This document shows positions 3,720 through 39,927 of a stretch of DNA of 64,000 bases, in pieces. Source of the stretch: Escherichia coli O157 typing phage 14. The position numbers were made by a program, and so were the translations under genes. The DNA is taken from the sequence record KP869112; one strand, 5' to 3'. Position 1 is the first letter of the stretch, and the number at the start of each line of letters is the position of its first letter. The notes beneath the pieces were generated by a model that saw nothing but the letters and a program-made list of their open reading frames with translations, searched no databases and was not told the DNA's origin.

Positions 3720-4880
3720 GTGAGAAAACTTACAACCGAAGATTTTATAGAGGGGGCGAAAGCAGTTCATGGTGATAAATATGATTATTCCAAAGTCAAA
3801 TATGTGGGTGCACACACCAAGGTTGTAATTATATGCCCTGAGCATGGAGAATTTAAGAAAACTCTTGGAGATCACCTCCGTAAAAAACAGGGTTGCCCAA
3901 AATGTCAGATTGAAGCAGAAAGAGCGGCTTCTGCTGAAAAATTTAAAGCGGAGGCCGAGGCTAAGTATAATTATAAATATGATTACTCTAAGGTAGAGTA
4001 TGTAAATGCTAAAACTAAAGTTGTGATTGTTTGTCCTGTTCACGGCGAGTTTGAGCAAAAGCCTTATAACCATCTCCGCGAGGGGGGTTGCCGTAAGTGT
4101 GGAGGGACTGAGAGAAAGACTACTGAAGAGTGGATCGCTGAGGCAAAAGCGCTTCATGGCGATAAGTATGATTACTCTCTTGTAAATTATAAAACCTGTA
4201 ATGATAAAGTGGAGATAATCTGTAATACATGTGGTGCTCACTTCCCACAAAGACCTCATGACCATGCACCAAGTGGAAACGGTTGCCCCGAGTGCGGGAA
4301 GAAGAAGGTGGCCGAGGTTAGTAGGAAGACGCAGAGAAAGAAAGCATCTGAGGTAGCTAAAAGGTTTGAGGCAAGAGCCAGAGCTATCCATAAAGATAAA
4401 TACGATTATTCCAGGGTGGAATATGTTAATAGGGAGACAGAGGTCACTATCATCTGTCCGATTCACGGGGAGTTCACACAAAAACCGTTTGTCCACATCA
4501 ACCAAAAAGCTGGCTGTCAAAAATGTGCTAAAGTCGGCTTCTTATCTCATGAACATGGTAGCCTTTATATCATGGTTGACGATCTGGAAGTACCAACTAT
4601 GATGAAAATTGGTGTGAGTGTCCGGGTAGATGAACGAAGAAAAGATGTGTTAAAAAGAGCTAAAAAAGCTGGTGCTAGATTCTCTGATCTACATGTTATA
4701 AAAACTTGGGAAGGAACAACAGACGACATGCAAACTTTAGAAAAAGCTATGCACCAAGCCTTGAGCCAATACAAAATCAACTTCACAGAGAAGTTTGATG
4801 GCTGTCGAGAGTTCTTCTACTACAGACCGGAGGTATTCGAGCTAGTAGAAGAACATTTGAAGAAATTTGCTAATAAATAA
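3720..4880 (+). CDS. homing-endonuclease-like protein: four tandem zinc-ribbon repeats plus C-terminal T5orf172/GIY-YIG-like domain
   Basis: Four ~60 aa repeats KYDYSxVxY...IICPxHGEFxQxPxxH...GCxxC; C-terminus SLYIMVDD...KIGVS...GCREFFY resembles T5orf172; inserted between nrdD and nrdG; GTG start with AAGAGGA RBS. Confidence 0.6.
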   Translation: MRKLTTEDFIEGAKAVHGDKYDYSKVKYVGAHTKVVIICPEHGEFKKTLGDHLRKKQGCPKCQIEAERAASAEKFKAEAEAKYNYKYDYSKVEYVNAKTKVVIVCPVHGEFEQKPYNHLREGGCRKCGGTERKTTEEWIAEAKALHGDKYDYSLVNYKTCNDKVEIICNTCGAHFPQRPHDHAPSGNGCPECGKKKVAEVSRKTQRKKASEVAKRFEARARAIHKDKYDYSRVEYVNRETEVTIICPIHGEFTQKPFVHINQKAGCQKCAKVGFLSHEHGSLYIMVDDLEVPTMMKIGVSVRVDERRKDVLKRAKKAGARFSDLHVIKTWEGTTDDMQTLEKAMHQALSQYKINFTEKFDGCREFFYYRPEVFELVEEHLKKFANK

Positions 4881-8465: not shown

Positions 8466-8999
8466 ATGACTTGTGCTAGAAAACCTGATGAACAACGTAA
8501 CGCCTACGATGAGTATGTGACACCGGAGTGGTGTGCAGAAGGGCTGTATGACCTTATTCCGTTCCCAGAAGACTGGACCTACTTAGAGCCTTGCAGGAAT
8601 AGTGCCTCAGGTGTGTTCTACTCCCGTATGCCGTTAGGATCTGCATGGGGAGAAATCCAAGAAGGTGTTGACTATCTGAATACAGAATACAACCATGTTG
8701 ACTGTATTATCACCAACCCACCATACAGCTTGGCTCGTGAGTTTGTAGACAAGGCGTTGAAAGATGCTGACGTAGTTATTATGCTTTTACGTCTTAATTT
8801 TCTGGAAAGCAAAGCCAGATTTGAATGGTGGCTTGATAATGCACCTACCACTGTGATCACAATATCTAAGCGTCCGTCATTTCAATCAAATGGCAGAACT
8901 GACGGGCAAGCATATGCATATTTTGTGTGGGATAAGAAAAACCGTTTAGGCTTGCCGCCATTTATGTGGTTGGCACCCCCAGAGGTAGACCTGAAATGA
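8466..8999 (+). CDS. DNA N6-adenine methyltransferase, phage Dam-like
   Basis: 177 aa; YVTPEW and catalytic NPPYS motifs in the order typical of small phage Dam enzymes. Confidence 0.65.
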   Translation: MTCARKPDEQRNAYDEYVTPEWCAEGLYDLIPFPEDWTYLEPCRNSASGVFYSRMPLGSAWGEIQEGVDYLNTEYNHVDCIITNPPYSLAREFVDKALKDADVVIMLLRLNFLESKARFEWWLDNAPTTVITISKRPSFQSNGRTDGQAYAYFVWDKKNRLGLPPFMWLAPPEVDLK

Positions 9000-9280
9000 A
9001 AATGAGTGCTAAGGACAAATTACACCAGTTAGCGCTAAAATGTCCTGTAACGCTCCCTGACGAGCTTAACTCCATTTATGATGCGATTGTAGGGGAGATA
9101 CAAAATAAAGCGTTAGCAGGCTTTCTGGGATGCGGATTTTCGATAAATCTACCCTCGCATCTCTCAGATTACTTCCCGCATATTGTTGGGGATTTGAGGG
9201 CAGGAGGTCTGCAGGTAGATGTTGTTGGCATCTCTCCAGAGAAAAATAATACGGTTGCCTACTTGACAGTAACCTGGTAG
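8996..9280 (+). CDS. hypothetical protein
   Basis: ATG overlapping upstream stop, GAGG RBS; ORF-track start 8966 likely an extension. Confidence 0.45.
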   Translation: MKMSAKDKLHQLALKCPVTLPDELNSIYDAIVGEIQNKALAGFLGCGFSINLPSHLSDYFPHIVGDLRAGGLQVDVVGISPEKNNTVAYLTVTW

Positions 9281-9314
9281 TAGTGTATTGTTGTTCTCAA
9301 CAAGGGGGTCATTT

Positions 9315-9554
9315 ATGTACAAGTCATTTTCAATTTACTCAAGACAGGCGAAACACTACACAGAGATCCTGATTACTCAGAAAAAATCTGTAGAAGGTGA
9401 GTGGGAATATCACCATAAAATGTTGCGTCCAGATTGGGTTTTTGATAGACTTATTGCCATGATCCCTCTTGGGGAAGTATACCCTCTGACAGGTGGGAGG
9501 GATGCTTGGGATTTAATTGATTACATAGATTCATTTAAGGAGCCCAGTGTATGA
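9315..9554 (+). CDS. hypothetical protein
   Basis: ATG with AAGGGGG RBS; ORF-track start 9288 likely an extension. Confidence 0.45.
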   Translation: MYKSFSIYSRQAKHYTEILITQKKSVEGEWEYHHKMLRPDWVFDRLIAMIPLGEVYPLTGGRDAWDLIDYIDSFKEPSV

Positions 9555-17865: not shown

Positions 17866-18129
17866 ATGAACATCCTGATGTGGGTTATAGCAGTGGCGTT
17901 TGTTGCATGTTTTTGCTGCTGGGTTGCGGTGAGGATTTCTGTAGCTACCCTTCGGAAGTTGGGGTTCTCAGAATGGGATATTAATATCCTTTCTTTTCGC
18001 AATGAAACAATCTCAGCCGCCCTGCTTTGTAAGAAATTCAAGTGGGAACCTTGTGAGGTCATGAGCTATCTAAGAACAGGCGATATCCCTGAAAGATTTA
18101 AAAAAGTTCTTGACGGCAAGGATAAATGA
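17866..18129 (+). CDS. small membrane protein
   Basis: RBS GTGAGG; hydrophobic N-terminal helix. Confidence 0.45.
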   Translation: MNILMWVIAVAFVACFCCWVAVRISVATLRKLGFSEWDINILSFRNETISAALLCKKFKWEPCEVMSYLRTGDIPERFKKVLDGKDK

Positions 18130-18284
18130 CAGTATAGTGACTAACAAGAGGTGAGGAGTGACTGATTTTACTGAAGCTTTAATGATGGCCTTGTCTGTTT
18201 TAGCGCTATCGGTGTGTTTTGGGGCGTTATTCACATCTCTGGTTAAAGTTTTACATACAATATTATTACCCAAGGAGCGCAGTA

Positions 18285-18536
18285 ATGACGAAGATTGACT
18301 TGAATGCTGGCGATCATGTTGTTGTCAAATGCATTGGAGATTATCTTGGATTCACAATCGGCAATACTTACGAGGCGGTAGTGGCGAAGGTTTATCATGA
18401 TAAAGTCCTCAGTCTTGTATTTGACTGCGATGATGATGGGGATGACCGATACGTCTGTGAGGTGCTGGCACGAGACGATAGTGAAGACCAGAAATTTCTG
18501 GTTATTGAACTGAACGGTATTTTTGTAGAACGTTAA
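18285..18536 (+). CDS. hypothetical protein
   Basis: ATG with AAGGAG RBS; ORF-track start 18219 is an extension. Confidence 0.5.
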   Translation: MTKIDLNAGDHVVVKCIGDYLGFTIGNTYEAVVAKVYHDKVLSLVFDCDDDGDDRYVCEVLARDDSEDQKFLVIELNGIFVER

Positions 18537-18564
18537 TTTAAAACAACATAAGGAGACTCTTACT

Positions 18565-18870
18565 ATGGCTAAATCTAAAGTTGAACTGTTCACCTCTCTT
18601 CCTTCTGACACTGCAGAGCGTGATCGCCTTCGCAAAACAATCGAAGAACTGGTGGAACTCCAACTTCAGATTAAAGATCTGAAAGATGCCATTAAGGATA
18701 TCATTCTTGTTGAGAAGCAGGATCATTTGTATTCTCCTAAATTCATCAAATCTCTGGTGGCTACCGAGTTCGATATTCGATATGAGGCTGAAAAACGTCG
18801 AGCTAAAATCGAAGAAGAGGTTGAGCACATGTCTGAGGCAGACATTCTGTTCAAACGCTCTGTAGAATAA
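18565..18870 (+). CDS. hypothetical protein (coiled-coil-like)
   Basis: RBS AAGGAGA. Confidence 0.5.
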   Translation: MAKSKVELFTSLPSDTAERDRLRKTIEELVELQLQIKDLKDAIKDIILVEKQDHLYSPKFIKSLVATEFDIRYEAEKRRAKIEEEVEHMSEADILFKRSVE

Positions 18871-18876
18871 TGACAA

Positions 18877-18905
18877 AGAGGGGGGGCTTAGGCCCCTCTT
18901 TTTAC
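18877..18905 (+). terminator. intrinsic terminator AGAGGGGGGGC-TTAG-GCCCCTCT + TTTTT
   Basis: Strong GC stem plus T run immediately after stop of 18565 gene. Confidence 0.7.
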
Positions 18906-18926
18906 TATCTATGAAGGAGATTTGAG

Positions 18927-19259
18927 ATGGGCATGCCGATCACTGTAAAAGAATTGAATGAACGTGATGCAGGTGGTCTATGGCCTGCACGAAAAATCCG
19001 TTGCATCCGTATGAAAGAGAACCTTGAACATCTTGAGCAACAGAAACGGATTGAGGTTGGTGATATTTTCGAAGTATTTTATTCTGATCGCCGTAACTGG
19101 GAAACCATTCAACCTTCCGGTCTTGTTCTTGCTAAGCTTGACACTGGAGAAGTGATTGTTCCTGGGTTGGATATTGTCTTCGAAATTATCCAGGAGTGGG
19201 ATCCGGACAAGATTAGATACGAAGAGTTATTCGGTAAAGGTATTATCAAACCTGTGTGA
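18927..19259 (+). CDS. hypothetical protein
   Basis: RBS GAAGGAGA. Confidence 0.5.
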   Translation: MGMPITVKELNERDAGGLWPARKIRCIRMKENLEHLEQQKRIEVGDIFEVFYSDRRNWETIQPSGLVLAKLDTGEVIVPGLDIVFEIIQEWDPDKIRYEELFGKGIIKPV

Positions 19260-19267
19260 GGTGGATT

Positions 19268-19567
19268 ATGTCTACAAAGGCGGCTAAATACTCCTACATA
19301 CCATCAACCTCTGCAGAGGTAGACTTTAGTTTCGATGTGTTTCCACTGTTTGAGGTGGTTCTGGCATACCCAACAATACTATCTACTCCTGAGTCACTTG
19401 TGCCTGTTAAGTTGCAGAACGCTATGCATTCTATGCACTACAACAATAAATGTAGGCACAGATGGTGTCAGGACGAGGAAAAAGATCTGGATAGTTTGAG
19501 AGATTTTGACAATCACCTTTTGACACCTTTCAGCTACTCCAACCTTGATAAGCCCTCATGGGTATAG
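19268..19567 (+). CDS. hypothetical protein
   Basis: ATG with GAGGTGG RBS; ORF-track start 19256 is a short extension. Confidence 0.5.
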   Translation: MSTKAAKYSYIPSTSAEVDFSFDVFPLFEVVLAYPTILSTPESLVPVKLQNAMHSMHYNNKCRHRWCQDEEKDLDSLRDFDNHLLTPFSYSNLDKPSWV

Positions 19568-19592
19568 CAAAATATCAAATTTAAGACACCTA

Positions 19593-19620
19593 GGACGCTC
19601 TGTGGCGTCCTTTTCTTTAT
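19593..19620 (+). terminator. intrinsic terminator GGACGC-TCTGTG-GCGTCC + TTTTCTTTAT
   Basis: 6 bp stem and T-rich tail after 19268 gene. Confidence 0.65.
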
Positions 19621-19780
19621 CTGGTGCACGATTGCATACCTTTGACAGATAATCTCATTACAGAGCGTTTAAGAGCTTCCTACAAACAAATCTCTCTTTC
19701 GAGCGTAGCGAGAACGCACGTCCGTTTTGACCCAAATCACCATACGCTCGGATTTTAACCAAACCCTCGCGGCGTTTCTA

Positions 19781-19809
19781 TTGACACATTACCGCTCCAG
19801 TGATAATAT
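19781..19809 (+). promoter_or_regulatory. sigma70-like promoter (TTGACA, 17 nt, TAATAT)
   Basis: Upstream of small peptide gene at 19842. Confidence 0.5.
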
Positions 19810-19841
19810 CCACACATAGTTTGTAGAATATGGGGTACACT

Positions 19842-19931
19842 ATGAGAACATTGTCCGAAGTTTTGGTGGTGATCCTGATGATCATTACGTCCATAGCGGC
19901 TGTTGCCGGAATACTCACGGGTGGAACATGA
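19842..19931 (+). CDS. small hydrophobic peptide (29 aa)
   Basis: ATG 33 nt downstream of promoter -10; single TM helix; stop overlaps next ATG. Confidence 0.35.
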   Translation: MRTLSEVLVVILMIITSIAAVAGILTGGT

Positions 19932-20140
19932 TAAACACACATGCATCTGAAGAGACATCCAAAGGAGTGACTATATGTCCCTTGGCTGAGCCAGTGAAAG
20001 AGGAAAACTTCGATTCTGAAGATTCTCCATCTTCGCTCCAGGTAGATCCTGAGGCTGATGACCTAACGTGGGAAGACATCGTAGATATCTGGTTCTCTAT
20101 TATGCCTGAGCACGAAGAGTTCAGGGGTGGTAGACTATGA
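19928..20140 (+). CDS. small acidic protein
   Basis: ATGA overlap with upstream peptide gene. Confidence 0.4.
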   Translation: MINTHASEETSKGVTICPLAEPVKEENFDSEDSPSSLQVDPEADDLTWEDIVDIWFSIMPEHEEFRGGRL

Positions 20141-20261
20141 AGCACCGAGCCCACACAGGTTCCTCATGCTAAAGCATGGCCTGAAGAGGCAAACGTGCAT
20201 AATTCCTGTACATTGGGACGTATAAAACCCTGTTCACATTCTCATTTCCAGAGGAGATTTC

Positions 20262-20477
20262 ATGAAGATAGAAATATTTGGTGGAGCTGACAATACTCGT
20301 GGCCTGATTTACCTTGAATTCGATGAATCATACCTGCCAGAGGTGTTAAATATGGACTCTGTTGCTGATGCTTTGGGAGTAAGTCCTAAAGATCTCTACT
20401 CTGGTGCTGAGATTGATGGTTGGGAGGAGACCATGAACATTGATTTCAGTGAAGTAGGTGATGAACCACTGGACTGA
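20262..20477 (+). CDS. small acidic protein, MKIEI paralog family
   Basis: RBS GAGGAGA; MKIEIFGG N-terminus. Confidence 0.5.
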   Translation: MKIEIFGGADNTRGLIYLEFDESYLPEVLNMDSVADALGVSPKDLYSGAEIDGWEETMNIDFSEVGDEPLD

Positions 20478-22085
20478 CACACAATTAGCTACCCGGCTAA
20501 AGTGCTGGGAGCACCTATAACACATCTTTCAACTAAATTTCCTACCACCACAATCACTTACCTCCCACACATGACTGTTTGCTTGTTTAGTGAGCAGTCA
20601 TGCCTTGACATTCTTGCCTATCCTGATAAAATTAAGTTCTTCTCTTTTCTTTTACCGAGTAATTCGGGTTTTCTGTTCTCTTCGGTTTGAAGGGGTATGG
20701 AGATACACCTGAGTGAACAGGGTGAACAACCGAACCATTGGCTATGGCATTAGCATGGCGAAGCGGACGGGTGACGAAAGAGGGGCCGGAGGACACCAGT
20801 CACTGCCATATGATATATAGGTGATAACCTGAAGAGTCTGAATAAGTGTTTAAGTACCAGTCAGAGGAAAAGGTGAATGGTAGCCGAAGGGGGAGGGGGG
20901 TTTCTTGTATCTTTAATTTGTATATTATGTATACACTTGTAAACCAACACCATCTGAATTTGCTTACCACACAAAGCGGATAGAGACAAATATTACCTAT
21001 TAAACTTGAATTATTTATAGAAAATACCACAACACCACTTAAGTCTTTGATTTTACACATAAATCCTACAGATATTCACCCTCCATATTTAACATACTTG
21101 TAACATATCTATACCCAACCTGTCTGATCAACTCACCCAACTACATCCTCCATATTTCCCCTGTCTGTACTACCCCTGCCCAGCCGGGAGTCCCGTCATA
21201 TCTGGCTTTCCAGCAAATATCACACCCACAAATATCATTGCCTGAAGAGGGTTTCATCCCATAATACATGCCTTACCTGAAGAGCGCTTCATACACCACG
21301 TAAATTTTTTAATTGACCTGCAATTTTCCCGTCATGACCCCCTGCCCCGCCAGAGAGGTTGACTTTTCCCACACAGACCTGAAGAGCCAGCCAGAAATAT
21401 CTGAACAGGTCCAGTTATACCACGATTTTGACCTGACCGACAGGAGTGCCTCCCTGTCAGGAGCCGGTAGCGACTGGAGTGCTGCCAGGCGGACGAAATG
21501 GGAATACTTCTCATTCTTATAATAATTCTCAAATATCGAGGCAGTGAGGCAAATTAATAGGTGAGGCCGTTCACACAGTGGCACAACATTTGCAACCTAT
21601 CTTGTGGGGTGAATGAGAATACCTATCATTGTGAGAATAGTTATCATTACGGGCAATTTAACATAATACCCATTATGCGCACCACTGGCGATACATACAG
21701 GGGTTGATAACATGAGTTACTGTTTACGCACATAACAATTATATTTCTTACTATTTGTGTGGGATATAGTTAGCAGCCGATAGATTAGATATTGACCTGT
21801 AGACTTCCAACCGTCTAGACGTCTAAACGCCCACACAACAAGGCTTATACATACATCACTGAATGTAAACAGGACCGCAAAAATGCTACCATACAAGCTT
21901 GTAAATTTTTCATGCAGCACTTGACAAAGAGGAGGAAAACTTGTCTGACACACTGGGCACAACATAACATACTGCAGCACAATATGACACAATAACGACT
22001 GTTATTATTTCATGTTTCACTGTTCACGTATAGATTGTTCCCGCATAGACTGTTTACGCCTGGATAGTTCACGCATAGATGATAA

Positions 22086-22317
22086 GCCATGCCATTCGTT
22101 TGCATGACAATAATTAACTTGTTTACAATAGATGACATAATATAAAAGCAGGGCAACTATTAGAAGATCATAGTTGCCTTGCTTGTTATGTCATGATTAA
22201 CTAAATACAAGGCAACTATGATCTGATTAATAGATTGCAGACAAACTATCACGGGGGTGATTGTTACTGCTTTTATATTATGTCGCGACTCCGTCGCGCC
22301 ATGCCATTCGTTTGCAT
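22086..22317. repeat. repeat cluster: 20 bp direct repeat GCCATGCCATTCGTTTGCAT (x2), inverted repeat CATAATATAAAAGCAG/CTGCTTTTATATTATG, ATAGTTGCC motif x3
   Basis: Exact repeats read in sequence within the gene-free region. Confidence 0.6.
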
Positions 22318-22930
22318 AGTTGCCTTATTGTTACAGATAAAATAATTGTATTGTTAATTATTTCTTATCTTTCTATTAGTCATCTAATGATTTCAGTTAG
22401 TATAGTAACGTACAGTAAACATTAGACGACTAAAGATTTCTCTGCTTATAATAACCTAACGTGACAATTCCGGACTGTTTACGAAAAATGTTGACACCTG
22501 AGCTGATTTATGTTATGCAGTTTACACGAATAATTATTTTATGCAGGTATTGACTATTCTGTTATTCTATGGTTGGAATAAATACTTAGCAGGCTATAGA
22601 ATGGTGAGCGTACGTAAATTCTAAGATCTGGCGGCTATAGTTATGCCCGATTTTTCACGTAGAAAACGCTTTTATGAGTGTGTAAGTGTATGACTTATAA
22701 AGATTTTTAGTTGTTGACAAGATACTGAAGATGTGCATCAGGTTAAATTTTGTGCAATAGCGGCATTACGTGCAATTTTGGAAGGAAAAACGTGTAAAAA
22801 ATGGCGCTGCTACCACACAATGAAAGATTATGCAATAGCTATTTTACATGTATGTTTGTACAGTGGTGGTAATTGATGGCTTGTCGATTATTCCACTTGC
22901 CAGGCTGGGCCGTTTGTGGTAGGGGAAATA

Positions 22931-22963
22931 CAGACAAAAAGAAAGGGGCCTTTTAAAGCCCCT
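22931..22963 (-). terminator. intrinsic terminator for leftward block (AGGGGC stem, U tract on minus strand)
   Basis: Hairpin AGGGGC/GCCCCT followed on the minus strand by TTTCTTTTTGTCTG, just 3' of the 22982 gene stop. Confidence 0.55.
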
Positions 22964-22981
22964 GATAGTTTAGTTAATAAA

Positions 22982-23401
22982 TTATAATGATTCGTATATT
23001 TCAAAAATCCGATTTGCCAGGTCGTTACGGTACCGGAATTTTTCTTCACGTTTGATCATTAGATCTTTGAAGCCGTATTCTTTAAGCACTTCATTAACTT
23101 TATAGCGGCATACCCTCATATTGTCTTGCGCGTCACCGATAAACTTGTTGCTATGGTGCATGGCTTTAATTTCTTCTTCCAGGACCAGGGCAACTATGCG
23201 GACCGGATCAAGCTGATAGGCGGTAACATCCATGCGGCATTGTAAACGGCTTTTTACGTCTGCCACCGGGTATACTGCAACCTCTTCCCCGTCAACATTG
23301 ACAATAATTAGTTTACCATCGATTTCGAATCCTTTCGCCGCCGGACCGTGACAAAAAGCGTTATCAAAGCTATATGCCGGATTATTAGATTTGATGTTCA
23401 T
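22982..23401 (-). CDS. hypothetical protein
   Basis: RBS AAGAGG before ATG. Confidence 0.5.
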   Translation of the reverse strand: MNIKSNNPAYSFDNAFCHGPAAKGFEIDGKLIIVNVDGEEVAVYPVADVKSRLQCRMDVTAYQLDPVRIVALVLEEEIKAMHHSNKFIGDAQDNMRVCRYKVNEVLKEYGFKDLMIKREEKFRYRNDLANRIFEIYESL

Positions 23402-23548
23402 GGTGTTTTTACCTCTTAGTTAATTTTCTTACAACTTCCCTTCAAAAAAGAATATAGCAAAACTGCCGATCCTTGTCAACCAAGGATAGCATAATTTTTA
23501 TGTGATCAAGGGGCTTTATTGCCCCCTCTGATCGTGCAACTTGTTGTA

Positions 23549-23812
23549 TTATTTGTTGCTCATCCAGTTTTCCCAGGCTGCCTGATAATCTGCCTCACTG
23601 CGGCGGATCTCTTCTTGCTCTTCAAGTCGGATCTCTTCTTCCAGGTACCCCAAGATGTCAGCCTTTTTGGTCTGGCGTAGCATCCAGTCATCTTTTTTGC
23701 GGGTAAAGATCTTATAAGCTTTCTCGCAAACCTCTTTTTTGCTACCTTTTTGGACTTCAAGAATTCTGTAGGCCATGTACTGAACTAATTTAAGCTGATC
23801 CAGACGTTTCAT
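23549..23812 (-). CDS. hypothetical protein
   Basis: RBS AAAGAGGAAA before ATG. Confidence 0.5.
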   Translation of the reverse strand: MKRLDQLKLVQYMAYRILEVQKGSKKEVCEKAYKIFTRKKDDWMLRQTKKADILGYLEEEIRLEEQEEIRRSEADYQAAWENWMSNK

Positions 23813-23889
23813 GATGTTTCCTCTTTATGTGGTTCGTTTTGATTAGTTGATAATACAGCAGTTCGCAGATCAGTCTTTAGCAATTCATG

Positions 23890-24108
23890 CTATTTACTCA
23901 CAAGGGTGTCGAAAACAAATTTTTCTTTATTGTCTAAACTCACGTATCCGATTCGACCACGCAAGCCGCAAGTAGTGCCGTACTCGTAACCATTAAGGCC
24001 TTTAACCTTCCAATCCGTACCCATTAAAACCGCATTATATTCCTGACCAACTACAAAAGCGCCCCCAGTCGATTCAATGCAAACAACTTTAATTTTACGG
24101 GTTGTCAT
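23890..24108 (-). CDS. hypothetical protein
   Basis: RBS AAAGAGAGAAAG before ATG. Confidence 0.5.
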   Translation of the reverse strand: MTTRKIKVVCIESTGGAFVVGQEYNAVLMGTDWKVKGLNGYEYGTTCGLRGRIGYVSLDNKEKFVFDTLVSK

Positions 24109-24168
24109 TTTCTTTCTCTCTTTGTGTGGTTCTGATTAGTGGGCCTTTTGGCCCGTGTCATTATCTTA

Positions 24169-24441
24169 TTACTTGCGGCGGCAGAATTCAAGCGTTTTTA
24201 ATTGATAATCTTCCTCAGCCTGGAGTACGACCGCCTCGATCATTTCGTTGGCATTGTTAAAGCCATAACCTTTAGCGAACTCATCCGCGCCACCTTCGTG
24301 ATCATGTTCTGCGTTCATCGCTTCCACAAAATGGAATTCCAAATTGTTGAGGTAGGGGCTTGATGTTCCGTCCTCTTTTTCGATGAGATCCCAAATAGCA
24401 TTAAAACGTGATTCGACTTCTTGATTAATCCAGCTTGACAT
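24169..24441 (-). CDS. hypothetical acidic protein
   Basis: RBS AGAGAGGAAAAC before ATG. Confidence 0.5.
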   Translation of the reverse strand: MSSWINQEVESRFNAIWDLIEKEDGTSSPYLNNLEFHFVEAMNAEHDHEGGADEFAKGYGFNNANEMIEAVVLQAEEDYQLKTLEFCRRK

Positions 24442-24547
24442 AATGTTTTCCTCTCTTCTGGTTGTTGTGTGGGCACTTTTGCCCCTTCAAGATAAATGTT
24501 ACCCCACCCCCTGGCAGATGTCAACGGTTTTTATAGTTCTTATATGA

Positions 24548-24593
24548 CAGGCACCCCCGGTGATTGTCTCCCCCCGTCGCCAGGTGCCTGCCG
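24548..24593 (-). repeat. copy 1 of conserved GGCAGGCACC...GACGGGGGGAGACAATCACCGGGG element (minus orientation), with flanking 8 bp stem
   Basis: Reverse complement nearly identical to 33654-33690. Confidence 0.6.
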
Positions 24594-24600
24594 TGGAATA

Positions 24601-24629
24601 AGTATAACAAAAAACAGGACCATTGCAAG
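24601..24629 (-). promoter_or_regulatory. candidate sigma70-like promoter (CTTGCA, 17 nt, TATACT) upstream of the conserved element
   Basis: Hexamers on minus strand. Confidence 0.35.
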
Positions 24630-24652
24630 CCCTGTTTTGTAGTTTATAAATA

Positions 24653-24844
24653 TTATATTTTTTCGCCTATGTAGTCCGGTCGGTTTTTCTCTGTCATGCG
24701 CTTTAGCAATTCTTGAATAATCCATATTGCGGTCAATGTCTCATCTTCACGCTTTGAGTCAACATAATCAGGATCGTTTATAACCTTTGTTTGATTATGA
24801 TATCTCAATACCGCCAACACTTTTACAGCTTCATCAGTGGTCAT
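24653..24844 (-). CDS. hypothetical protein
   Basis: ORF-track ORF; weak RBS. Confidence 0.4.
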   Translation of the reverse strand: MTTDEAVKVLAVLRYHNQTKVINDPDYVDSKREDETLTAIWIIQELLKRMTEKNRPDYIGEKI

Positions 24845-24989
24845 TATCGCACCTAAAACAATGAGTTAATATATAACACCAGATCGCTGACCACTAGAAT
24901 AACACTGATCAGCACATACCTAACCATAAGGGGAAAGAGCGCCAATATTGCCACCACAATCCCCAAGGTGATGATTATCTTTTTCATGG

Positions 24990-25274
24990 TTAACGGTTCA
25001 CGTAAGTTTTCCCGTTCACGGTTATGGGCAGATCCTCCAGGTCTGGGTCTTCCTTAAGGTCGCGAGCAAGCTCACCGCACCGGATACCCTCGAATCCGTA
25101 GTACTCTGTTGTACCGTCATTAAAAGTTTTAGCGGCAAGGCATAAGCGATAAGTAACCCCGATTTGATTGACGGCATGGATATCCGTTAGATCAACCTCT
25201 TTTGCCAGCTCTTTAGCCATTACAGGCGCATTAAGTCCAACAACCAGGGCAACCACTGCGATCATCTTTTTCAT
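24990..25274 (-). CDS. secreted/periplasmic small protein (signal peptide)
   Basis: N-terminus MKKMIAVVALVVGLNAPVMA looks like a cleavable signal peptide; RBS AAAGAGGA. Confidence 0.5.
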   Translation of the reverse strand: MKKMIAVVALVVGLNAPVMAKELAKEVDLTDIHAVNQIGVTYRLCLAAKTFNDGTTEYYGFEGIRCGELARDLKEDPDLEDLPITVNGKTYVNR

Positions 25275-25365
25275 TGTGTCTATCCTCTTTCTGCTACGTT
25301 TAAGGCGGCGGTAACCGCCTGTTTATGCTTTGTTGGTTAATTTTCAGGTATCTGTATAAATTAAA

Positions 25366-25581
25366 CTATGCTGTACGCTCAACTATAACAACGGTTTGGG
25401 GGATCTCACCTTCCACCACTAGTAAGGCCTTTTTCTGCGTGATGGATATCTTTACCCGTTGCAGCGTGGCGGTGAAGTCTTTCATTTCGTCACGTGGTGT
25501 TTTAGTGCAATGCCAGATCTCAGGCTTACCTATTTGCAAGCCGCGTAAAAATTCTGTTTTACCTGTCTTATTCGTGATCAT
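25366..25581 (-). CDS. hypothetical protein
   Basis: ATG with AAGGTGA RBS; ORF-track start 25590 is an extension. Confidence 0.45.
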   Translation of the reverse strand: MITNKTGKTEFLRGLQIGKPEIWHCTKTPRDEMKDFTATLQRVKISITQKKALLVVEGEIPQTVVIVERTA

Positions 25582-38006: not shown

Positions 38007-39233
38007 TTAAAACGGTATGTCATCATCAAAGGCGTACTGTGCTGGATTCTGATCCATCGGGTCATCTTCCTCATCATTTACAGGAGGAGCGTCTACAGTG
38101 TTTTGCTGTGGAGCTGCTTCCTGTTTGGCAGCCTGAGGTTCTTGATGGTCAGTTGACCCAGCACCGTTCTTGATCCAATCGTACAACGGCTCAGCCAGAT
38201 TAGTCAAGACATCTTTTGCTTCTGCAGTAATTGCCACTGCAAAATCATCAACTTTCGTTTTCTTGTCAATACGGCGACAAGCGTTCAACACCGCATTACC
38301 GACACTGGCACCTACTTCATCTTCAGTTCGGTTGGTGGCTTGAGCATACTCTTTCTTAAGCTCAATAGTGACTACGTGTAGTGTTTTAGCCACTCCTAGT
38401 GGGTCGTCTACCTTAAACCCGCGATCCAGGATGATTTGCAACGCATTGATGCTATGCCCCGTTTCCACACCGATAGGGTCGTAAGAGGATTTACGCTTGC
38501 CACCAGAGCCTTGAGTGCCGTTCTCTGCCTTAGGAGGATAGGCCTTGAAACCACTGATAATGTTTCCGGTGTCTTTGTCAACAATGGCTGCAACACGACC
38601 ACCTACCACCAGGTCTTTAAGCTGCTCATCAGTTACAACCATAGCACCTTCGCCAATCTTGTGGTCATTAACAGTAACCACGTTGCCAACAATCTGAGTC
38701 ACATCACCATAGATGCGTAAAACGTCCTGATTGGCATTCTGCTGAGGTTTCTGCTTCTGGCCTTGTGATTGTGCACCTTGTTGCTGTTTTTGCTGCTGAG
38801 TCGCTGCTGGAGCCTCTCCTGCACCCAGCTTAACCATCTTAGCCAGTGAGCCCTTGTAATAGGTCTTACCGTTATGCTCGTTTGCCTTCAAAGGGATATT
38901 TACGATCCATCCTGGCGTTACGGTTTCCCACTTGTCATCAATCTTAACAGAGACAGAGTCTTGATGACCTGGTTTAAGCAGCTTATCACCCATGCTGATC
39001 CAGACTTCTTCACCACCTTGAAGCAGGTTATCAGAGGAATCCAGTTCAGAAATCAGTAAAGAGATGGTGTGGCTGGATTCAATTTTCTTACCTTGCCACA
39101 CAGTGGTTTTAATACCTGTTGTAGGATCAGCACCTTTGATAGGCTTGATGCTAACACGTTTAATCATGCCGTGAGCCAGTAAAACAGTTTCACGCGGATT
39201 CATTGGGTTAGCGAATTGTTGAATAACGCTCAT
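38007..39233 (-). CDS. putative ssDNA-binding protein (SSB-like acidic C-terminal tail)
   Basis: C-terminus ends DDDIPF, the hallmark tail of bacterial SSB; Gln/Gly-rich linker; RBS AAGGAGA; N-terminal fold not verified. Confidence 0.45.
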   Translation of the reverse strand: MSVIQQFANPMNPRETVLLAHGMIKRVSIKPIKGADPTTGIKTTVWQGKKIESSHTISLLISELDSSDNLLQGGEEVWISMGDKLLKPGHQDSVSVKIDDKWETVTPGWIVNIPLKANEHNGKTYYKGSLAKMVKLGAGEAPAATQQQKQQQGAQSQGQKQKPQQNANQDVLRIYGDVTQIVGNVVTVNDHKIGEGAMVVTDEQLKDLVVGGRVAAIVDKDTGNIISGFKAYPPKAENGTQGSGGKRKSSYDPIGVETGHSINALQIILDRGFKVDDPLGVAKTLHVVTIELKKEYAQATNRTEDEVGASVGNAVLNACRRIDKKTKVDDFAVAITAEAKDVLTNLAEPLYDWIKNGAGSTDHQEPQAAKQEAAPQQNTVDAPPVNDEEDDPMDQNPAQYAFDDDIPF

Positions 39234-39598: not shown

Positions 39599-39681
39599 TA
39601 TGGAATCTCCGATTTTATTTGAACAACATAGAAGGAGACACTATTTTAGCATCCCCTTCTGTAAATTACAATAGGTATTTG

Positions 39682-39927
39682 TTAGCCAATCACTTCGAAA
39701 GTTCCCCAATTCCCGTCCAGCAGGCAGGTGATCGGATCTCCATCGTCGTCAAAGATTTCAAAGTTTTCAGCATCCAGGATGTGGCCCTCGAACACAATAC
39801 TCTCGTCGCCACCACCAGAAATAACAGCGTATTCCTTACCTTGAGTCAAGTTTTGACACCCTTTGCCACCAAAACCTACTTCCACACAACGTACTTTCTG
39901 TCCTGCGCGAGCAACTACTTCAGCCAT
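39682..39927 (-). CDS. hypothetical protein
   Basis: RBS CAGGAGA. Confidence 0.5.
   Translation of the reverse strand: MAEVVARAGQKVRCVEVGFGGKGCQNLTQGKEYAVISGGGDESIVFEGHILDAENFEIFDDDGDPITCLLDGNWGTFEVIG

Follow-up and report, generated by a model that had tools for sequence, protein, structure and literature searches.

The gap between two convergent gene blocks

Escherichia coli O157 typing phage 14 (KP869112) is a Vequintavirus (rV5-like, Vequintavirinae) coliphage, of which a stretch of 64 kb, here called the window, was analysed; all position numbers refer to it. Two convergent gene blocks in this window leave between them a gap (20478-22981), which is the subject of this study together with the direct terminal repeat (DTR) that we place within it. 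The last gene of the plus-strand block, coding for 71 amino acids (aa), stops at 20477 and the first gene of the minus-strand block (139 aa) stops at 22982, in agreement with the block limits of about 20480 and 22930 given in the initial annotation of this DNA.

A sequence search with positions 20300-23100 matched 121 phage records at 90-95% identity, nearly all of them Escherichia phages of the genus Vequintavirus, and the non-coding region was found in 119-121 Vequintavirus records. It has been drawn before: in the 2013 paper on phage rV5 the same gap, lying between rV5 genes 163 and 164, appears as a grey box labelled "non-coding", which "contained no ORFs" (open reading frames) and separates the convergent units ending at these two genes; no function was proposed for it (PMC3606486).

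Terminal repeat and probable genome ends

In the record of phage Gotham (MT682716) a repeat_region is annotated at 1-459 and at 136567-137025, and the two copies are identical. Once joined, the ends of this record are collinear with positions 20200-22967 of the window, which places the repeat at 21488-21945. The 459-bp terminal repeats of Gotham were published on the basis of twofold sequence coverage, in a passage that contrasts this phage with others without a twofold-coverage region (PMC7471380), and phages EdH4 and HdK5 were reported by Korf et al. to possess short, 458-bp redundancies at their termini (PMC6563267). The repeats of all three are 95-97% identical to the window and have the same boundaries, 21488 and 21945. 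The passages on the repeat in these two papers amount to one sentence each, in which it is not tied to the non-coding box and the flanking modules are not described.

The boundaries of the records were located by searching with 21488-21945. The repeat stands at both record ends, from nucleotide 1, in YN3, HdK5, EdH4, Gotham and ECP2309; the records of bov11CS3 and bov25_3 begin exactly at the equivalent of 21488, and that of Pr121LW begins, in reverse orientation, at the equivalent of 21945. In all, eight GenBank records among the matches listed begin exactly at one of the two repeat boundaries, and several GenBank records break within the gap at recurring positions. The boundaries also match shifts in conservation: similarity to a sister clade known from metagenomes (L006 and eight other loci, only 65-77% identical) starts at 21487, and conservation within the genus collapses about 5 nt past 21945.

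A packaging site was among the options named in the initial annotation, and it is the one supported here, because 21488-21945 is where the 458-bp repeat of close relatives falls and where independent records have their exact starts or ends. Judged from these sequence comparisons, the gap is very probably the terminal region of a linear genome, with the junction of the ends collapsed in this assembly and with 21488-21945 as the 458-bp DTR present at both ends. On this reading the left physical end begins GGCGGACG... and the right physical end finishes ...GGAAAACTTGTC; 20478-21487 is the non-coding arm of the right end, 21946-22981 is that of the left end, and both flanking gene blocks are transcribed towards the genome ends.

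Several points weigh against this assignment. The ends of phage 14 itself are deduced from relatives whose repeats differ from it by a few percent (see above), and the published passages on Vequintavirus termini are terse, the case of Gotham being one of sequence coverage. PhageTerm analysis of other Vequintavirus isolates indicated circular permutation or headful packaging (PMC8407724; PMC13211470), and PVP-SE1 and phiTE, phages of the same subfamily, have been described as terminally redundant and circularly permuted (PMC3475682). Moreover, some records may begin at the same place because their authors had rotated the genome to match a reference.

Such PhageTerm calls, and the restriction data for PVP-SE1 and phiTE quoted in PMC3475682, would fit a headful, circularly permuted phage with a pac site, in which packaging series begin in this region, the ends are imprecise and there is no fixed terminal repeat. 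However, at least three groups put the boundaries at identical nucleotides, the ends of the Gotham record are identical 459-bp copies, and twofold coverage is limited to about 0.5 kb in both Gotham and the Klebsiella phage KPP-1. Headful phages have a terminal redundancy of several percent and no fixed boundaries, and transposase-based libraries hide termini from PhageTerm. Headful packaging from a pac site is thus a very unlikely explanation of the gap.

In phage I29 (L010, 3401-4512), a partial duplication of 21111-21702 with a 59-nt inverted piece adjoins the terminal repeat, and there is no clean end-to-end junction. The duplication is probably an assembly artefact at the genome ends.

Coding potential and conservation

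None of the ORFs in the gap is longer than 91 aa, the larger ones are not kept open in relatives, and 21993-22981 is the longest stretch of the window without an ORF of at least 60 aa; this is in line with the initial annotation, which saw no ORF with a credible start or ribosome-binding site here. Ordinary genes at this position in homologous phages, which it had named as grounds for refutation, are not seen: the relatives are either unannotated here or carry inconsistent tiny ORFs. A hidden protein gene was ruled out, as no ORF is both long and conserved. The best candidate, a small minus-strand ORF at 21141-21269, is the sole one open in all relatives and is annotated in some of them, but indels of 1 and 3 nt change its frame both among members of the genus and in the sister clade, where it is interrupted though the underlying DNA is conserved. 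ARAGORN detected no transfer RNA (tRNA) or transfer-messenger RNA gene in the window, and Rfam 15, searched at E values up to 1, gave no relevant match, the two sub-threshold hits both falling on the terminator hairpin.

Conservation was followed as nucleotide diversity (pi) per 25 nt in an alignment of positions 18000-25500 with 14 relatives, and across the gap it is blockwise. The stretch 20575-20900 is almost invariant (pi 0-0.02, versus about 0.05-0.08 in the flanking genes), and 21000-21050, 21175-21225 and 22150-22325 are further highly conserved stretches; 20925-20975, about 21325, 21400-21460 and 21950-22075 are hypervariable and rich in indels. In the sister clade the elements follow one another in the same order, and six islands are conserved.

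This pattern bears on another option of the initial annotation, namely that the gap consists of decayed genes, i.e. coding remnants in neutral drift. Annotators of some relatives do call assorted small ORFs in the gap, but the ORFs called vary between records. Blocks with pi close to 0 are more conserved than the flanking genes, reading frames are not preserved and indels disregard them, and the architecture is kept in a clade as divergent as the sister clade and, as motifs, in another genus. Blockwise conservation and the order retained in the sister clade argue against neutral decay, and we reject this explanation as extremely unlikely.

Elements of the right arm

From the plus-strand to the minus-strand gene block, the gap holds the following elements (strand given where one was assigned):

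20570-20603, plus strand: stem-loop directly after the 71-aa gene (CATGACTG ... CAGTCATG), read from the sequence.
20605-20632, plus strand: predicted sigma-70-type promoter with an extended -10 element (TTGACA-16-TGaTAAAAT), matching the consensus at 11 of 12 positions.
20640-20903, plus strand: ultra-conserved block ('RNA-A' candidate), pi 0-0.02, below that of the flanking genes; the most conserved sequence in the neighbourhood.
20920-21487, plus strand: right-end arm, C-rich on the plus strand to about 21420, with a GC skew down to -0.42.
21488-21945: DTR, in a single copy in this assembly, 95% identical to the 459-bp Gotham repeat.
21946-22080, plus strand: hypervariable spacer and 15-nt tandem array (core cTGTTyACGc; array at 22019-22078) just inside the left end, pi 0.3-0.4.
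22086-22317: inverted-repeat module between exact 20-nt direct repeats (22086-22105 and 22298-22317), pi 0.01-0.03 over 22150-22325.
22320-22450: AT-rich stretch, G+C about 0.33; the sister clade has a longer one in this position.
22577-22800: conserved island (GCGnCTATAGTTATnCCCGATTTTTCA ... TTATAAAGATTTnTAGTTGTTGACA ... ATGTGCATCA), with an identity of 65% between window and sister clade and with long runs of invariant positions.
22944-22963: bidirectional intrinsic terminator closing the leftward block, its stem kept by compensatory changes in the sister clade (GGGGCC/GGCCCC versus GGCCGC/GCGGCC).

At the place of the stem-loop 20570-20603 the sister clade has a different stem (ACCTAC ... 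GTAGGT), so that the pairing is kept by compensatory change. The predicted promoter that follows it, the sister-clade version of which is TTGCAA-17-TGcTATAAT, is directed at the terminal repeat about 850 nt downstream.

The initial annotation described the plus strand of the whole gap as C-rich and G-poor. This is true of about 20920-21420 only, where the GC skew ranges from -0.2 to -0.42; at 20600-20900 and 22400-23000 the plus strand is G-rich. The direct repeats listed in it are real: CCTCCATATTT occurs at 21080 and 21147, and CCTGAAGAG at 21241, 21276 and 21378, with copies at 20828 in the gap and at 20180 that had been missed. These five copies of CCTGAAGAG are all on the plus strand, and the 64 kb contain seven exact copies. 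A further repeat, CAAATATC, lies at 21214 and 21229, and the sister clade shares the conserved islands 20996-21115 and 21150-21257.

The palindrome CGTCTAGACG also exists, at 21812-21821 instead of the reported 21806-21815, but it is not conserved, since Gotham has CGTCCAGACG in its place. AGACGTCT (21811-21818), in a poorly conserved stretch (pi 0.126), bears some likeness to a MetJ box, and the GAGAATAnnTATCATT repeats to a Fur box; both readings were set aside. A hammerhead-like reading of CUGAAGAG was dropped, since the sequence lacks the GAAA core that it would need and has no match in Rfam.

In several members of the sister clade, the block 20640-20903 is separated from the next island (about 20900 to about 20996 of the window) by about 0.7-1.2 kb more DNA. 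In L006 this interval contains, at 8716-9486 (plus strand of the locus, minus strand in window orientation), a gene for a 256-aa HNH endonuclease (Pfam HNH_3, E = 1.6e-18) with a good ribosome-binding site, which looks like a free-standing homing endonuclease gene inserted in the terminal non-coding arm.

The ultra-conserved block

The block at 20640-20903 has a leader of pyrimidines, a hairpin (20655-20667) that resembles a terminator and has a T-run, an invariant core, GAGTGAACAGnGTGAACAnCCGAA, at 20711-20734, and a final G5AG6 (20889-20900) followed by TTTCTT. It is 68-77% identical in the sister clade, with indels of 1, 2, 5 and 19 nt, and because of these indels it is regarded as non-coding. 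In place of G5AG6 and TTT (20889-20903) the sister clade has G5-6 UA G5, and the lengths of the G-runs differ by one base between records.

The block might be a non-coding RNA (ncRNA) locus, in which the promoter at 20605-20632 drives a structured RNA of about 260 nt that regulates in trans and is unrelated to packaging. Such a locus would explain that part of the gap which is conserved best. In its favour, the promoter is kept in two clades, the block varies less than the adjacent genes, coding is excluded by the indels, and a few pairs are compensatory, e.g. AUGGCA/UGCCAU versus AUCGCA/UGCGAU. In addition, an 11-nt stretch of the core is the complement of a stretch in the leader of the 71-aa gene. 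However, the fold z-score is -1.1, i.e. the energy is no better than that of shuffled sequence, the covariation comes from two clades only and is partly alignment slippage, and the terminator-like hairpin lies about 15-40 nt past the predicted start. There is no Rfam family, an nhmmer profile of 20640-20903 found no homologue in A5-4, W70, phiTE, a phapecoctavirus locus or T7, and the locus would explain some 0.3 kb out of 2.5 kb. A structured RNA is weakly supported, and a trans-acting ncRNA unrelated to packaging is possible, though on the unlikely side.

The complementarity is between GUGAACAGGGU in the core (20713-20723) and ACCCUGUUCAC (20227-20237), the latter lying about 25 nt ahead of the start codon for the 71-aa protein. 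Gotham has both 11-mers as well, and the TGTTCAC core recurs in the 15-nt array. The target site was not seen upstream of the homologous gene in L006, the sole sister-clade member read, and the match could be due to chance, since 64 kb should yield about four 11-mer matches of this kind.

The pseudo-ToxI of phiTE, a type III antitoxin mimic, was ruled out as a syntenic ncRNA: the phiTE locus lies among same-strand genes beside tRNAs and a terminase gene, outside any convergent gap, and for ToxI-type repeats a length of about 36 nt is expected, versus the 15-nt period here. No transcriptome of this phage group was found among the titles and abstracts that a literature search listed.

The block may be viewed in three ways: as an end-directed transcript like that of T7 phiOR, as a regulatory RNA, or as a packaging signal acting at the DNA level. 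The G-run at 20889-20903 presumably resembles human mitochondrial CSBII, an R-loop primer site, which we treat only as a lead. We might speculate that 20640-20903 encodes a new phage RNA, made by the host RNA polymerase towards the right end, the G5AG6-U-rich 3' end of which stalls or terminates as an R-loop or G-quadruplex and primes DNA synthesis through the terminal repeat. We give this little chance of being correct. Were it true, phage 14 would have an element equivalent to T7 phiOR but dependent on sigma-70, resembling the mitochondrial CSBII primer site, and its transcript would tie transcription either to the duplication of the repeat or to replication starting near the ends.

The left arm and the question of an origin

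Two further features of the initial annotation, iterons at 22020-22080 and a 20-nt direct repeat, were found as described, the former being the 15-nt array and the latter having exact copies at 22086 and 22298. Its inverted repeat is likewise present, with outer arms of 18 nt (22134-22151 and 22267-22284) and not 16; inner arms lie at 22165-22181 and 22208-22224. This arrangement is kept in the sister clade and in KPP-1, with different arm sequences.

The number of copies in the 15-nt array varies from about 2 to about 10 among phages 90% identical overall. The record of phage FV3 (L014) lacks one copy of the 20-nt repeat and everything between the copies (equivalent of 22106-22297), as is expected from recombination between direct repeats or from assembly collapse; if the record is correct, the inverted-repeat module is dispensable. 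Many relatives carry G+C-rich, hairpin-containing insertions of 50-80 nt (e.g. GCCAGGTGACCTTCGGTCACCCCTTCGGGTG) at about 22133 and about 22185. These insertions are absent from the window and occur also in L026. Closely related phages differ in whether they have them, which is how small mobile or terminator-like cassettes behave. Over 22000-22600 the G+C content is 0.33-0.34, so that an AT-rich element adjoins the array. In the conserved island at 22577-22800, no convincing -10 hexamer follows TTGACA.

In the sister clade, three members have two or three perfect DnaA boxes (GTTATCCACA) in direct orientation, with variable flanks, at the position of the array (about 21950-22080): L006 (reverse strand, 4534-4573), L026 (3027-3054) and L035 (1788-1815).

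The left arm is reminiscent of iteron and DnaA-box origins (plasmids, P1 oriR, oriC), which likewise have tandem short repeats beside an AT-rich stretch. A lytic replication origin at 21950-22450 would consist of iterons or DnaA boxes, inverted repeats and an AT-rich unwinding stretch, would perhaps be primed by transcripts of promoters close by, and could coexist with the termini. The order of the elements favours it, as the tandem array is followed by perfect inverted repeats and then by the stretch with a G+C of 0.33, and so do the perfect TTATCCACA boxes of the sister clade, which stand at the array position, are conserved in three members and precede a longer AT-rich stretch. Furthermore, T7 is annotated with promoters near both ends. 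Promoters near the ends of T7 are associated with origins, and this phage has end-proximal secondary origins.

On the other hand, the gap of the window contains no DnaA box, even allowing one mismatch, the copy number of the array is unstable among near-identical phages, and the FV3 record lacks the whole inverted-repeat module. The authors of the rV5 paper saw skew changes that track the direction of transcription only (PMC3606486). Moreover, the gene blocks are transcribed towards the region, so that forks leaving it would collide head-on with transcription. An origin in the left arm is therefore rather unlikely.

Comparison with T7 and KPP-1

The organization of the gap recalls that of T7 and T3, which have a short exact terminal repeat in a non-coding junction, arrays of short repeats on both sides of it (SRL/SRR) and promoters phiOL and phiOR; a promoter in the right arm, behind which there is no long gene, is aimed at the repeat. 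In the T7 sequence we found an exact 160-bp terminal repeat, copies of CCTAAAG with 13-nt spacing right after the left repeat copy (175-338), more CCTAAAG copies before the right one (39621-39706), and promoter phiOR at 39229, directed at the right copy. The window likewise has a non-coding junction, flanking arrays of short repeats and an end-directed predicted promoter. The right-arm motifs are also similar (ACCTGAAGAG in the window and GCCTAAAGAG in the sister clade, compared with ACCTAAAGA in T7), though this may be chance.

The differences are considerable. Phage 14 belongs to a group of 137-kb myoviruses, whereas T7 is a 40-kb podovirus, and its predicted promoter is of the host sigma-70 type, unlike the T7 promoter, which is read by the phage RNA polymerase. 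The two arms have different motifs, whereas T7 has one motif on both sides and inside the repeat, and they are about 1 kb long and include an inverted-repeat module.

A parallel within the subfamily is KPP-1 (Mydovirus, Vequintavirinae), for which a DTR of 514 bp at 116316-116829 was established by twofold coverage and a T7-type PhageTerm call (PMC9862379). Its repeat sits in a gene-poor gap, with the plus-strand block ending at 115981 and the minus-strand block starting at 117757. Both phages have TTGTAAATTT...CTTGACAAnGAG starting 46 nt ahead of the right repeat end, two AAATATC(A) motifs upstream of the repeat with another 42-45 nt into it, and paired AATGAGAAT motifs within the repeat. The left ends, GGCGGACG in the window and GACGGACA in KPP-1, have GRCGGAC in common, and the left arms contain a perfect inverted repeat (21 nt in KPP-1), then ...GTCGC...CGCGCC. 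However, nucleotide similarity is confined to short islands at matching places (best E = 1e-4), there is no counterpart of 20640-20903 in KPP-1, and its gap is shorter, about 1.8 kb.

Septuagintavirus A5-4 (L018, 6420-8571) and W70 (L019, 6111-8646) have in the equivalent position a gene-poor convergent gap of 2.2-2.5 kb, which shows next to no nucleotide similarity to that of the window; one 35-nt match in A5-4 (E = 0.005) is the exception. The gene numbering of W70 (W70_1, W70_251) starts in its gap, and the gap of A5-4 contains four one-mismatch DnaA boxes within 185 nt. Termini are not mentioned in the paper on these two phages.

The 139-aa gene (22985-23401, minus strand), the product of which has no Pfam domain, is about 90% identical in phAPEC8-like phages (phapecoctavirus records), which belong to another subfamily. 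In ESCO13, ECO340P2, BI-EHEC, ESCO5, phAPEC8 and tuntematon its homologue lies about 0.1-6 kb from the record end, and one phage of this group has a 328-bp terminal repeat. An IMG/VR search with the flanking proteins yielded only three loci, one of them non-syntenic. Nineteen records named 'Campylobacter phage' (at least one of them UNVERIFIED) are 88-92% identical to the coliphage region and classified as Vequintavirus; they are probably mislabelled or contaminant assemblies.

Proposed mechanism and implications

By analogy with T7-type phages, the following sequence of events may be envisaged. Replication would yield concatemers with one copy of the repeat between genome units, and the terminase would recognize conserved sequence at or near both repeat boundaries and cut at fixed positions. 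The boundary blocks 21488-21545 and 21900-21950 and the AAATATC motifs are candidate recognition sequences. Staggered nicking and strand-displacement synthesis would then duplicate the repeat, giving two copies per packaged genome, so that the virion DNA of this phage group would start at 21488 and end at 21945 after one full genome length. Once the DNA is injected, its ends could recombine with each other through the repeats. Cis-acting parts of the junction would be the repeated motifs, the inverted-repeat module and the promoter directed at the end.

That vequintaviruses closely related to phage 14 have a short terminal repeat has been published before. Added here are its connection with the long-known non-coding box, the two-arm anatomy of that box, and the parallels with T7 and KPP-1.

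Phages of this genus have been widely isolated and serve in cocktails for therapy and biocontrol. Of their approximately 120 GenBank records, most start at an arbitrary point, and circular permutation is stated for many. With the non-coding box as the true ends, these genomes would gain a natural start coordinate, and assemblies that break or duplicate in the region would be explained by genome ends. Since ends at this place bear on the mode of packaging, they also bear on the assessment of the risk of generalized transduction in therapy, and they would locate the cis-acting packaging signals that have to be kept when these phages are engineered. Finally, the T7-style junction, with its repeat, flanking arrays and end-directed promoter, would be extended to a large myovirus, which might serve as a second system for studying these unexplained arrays.

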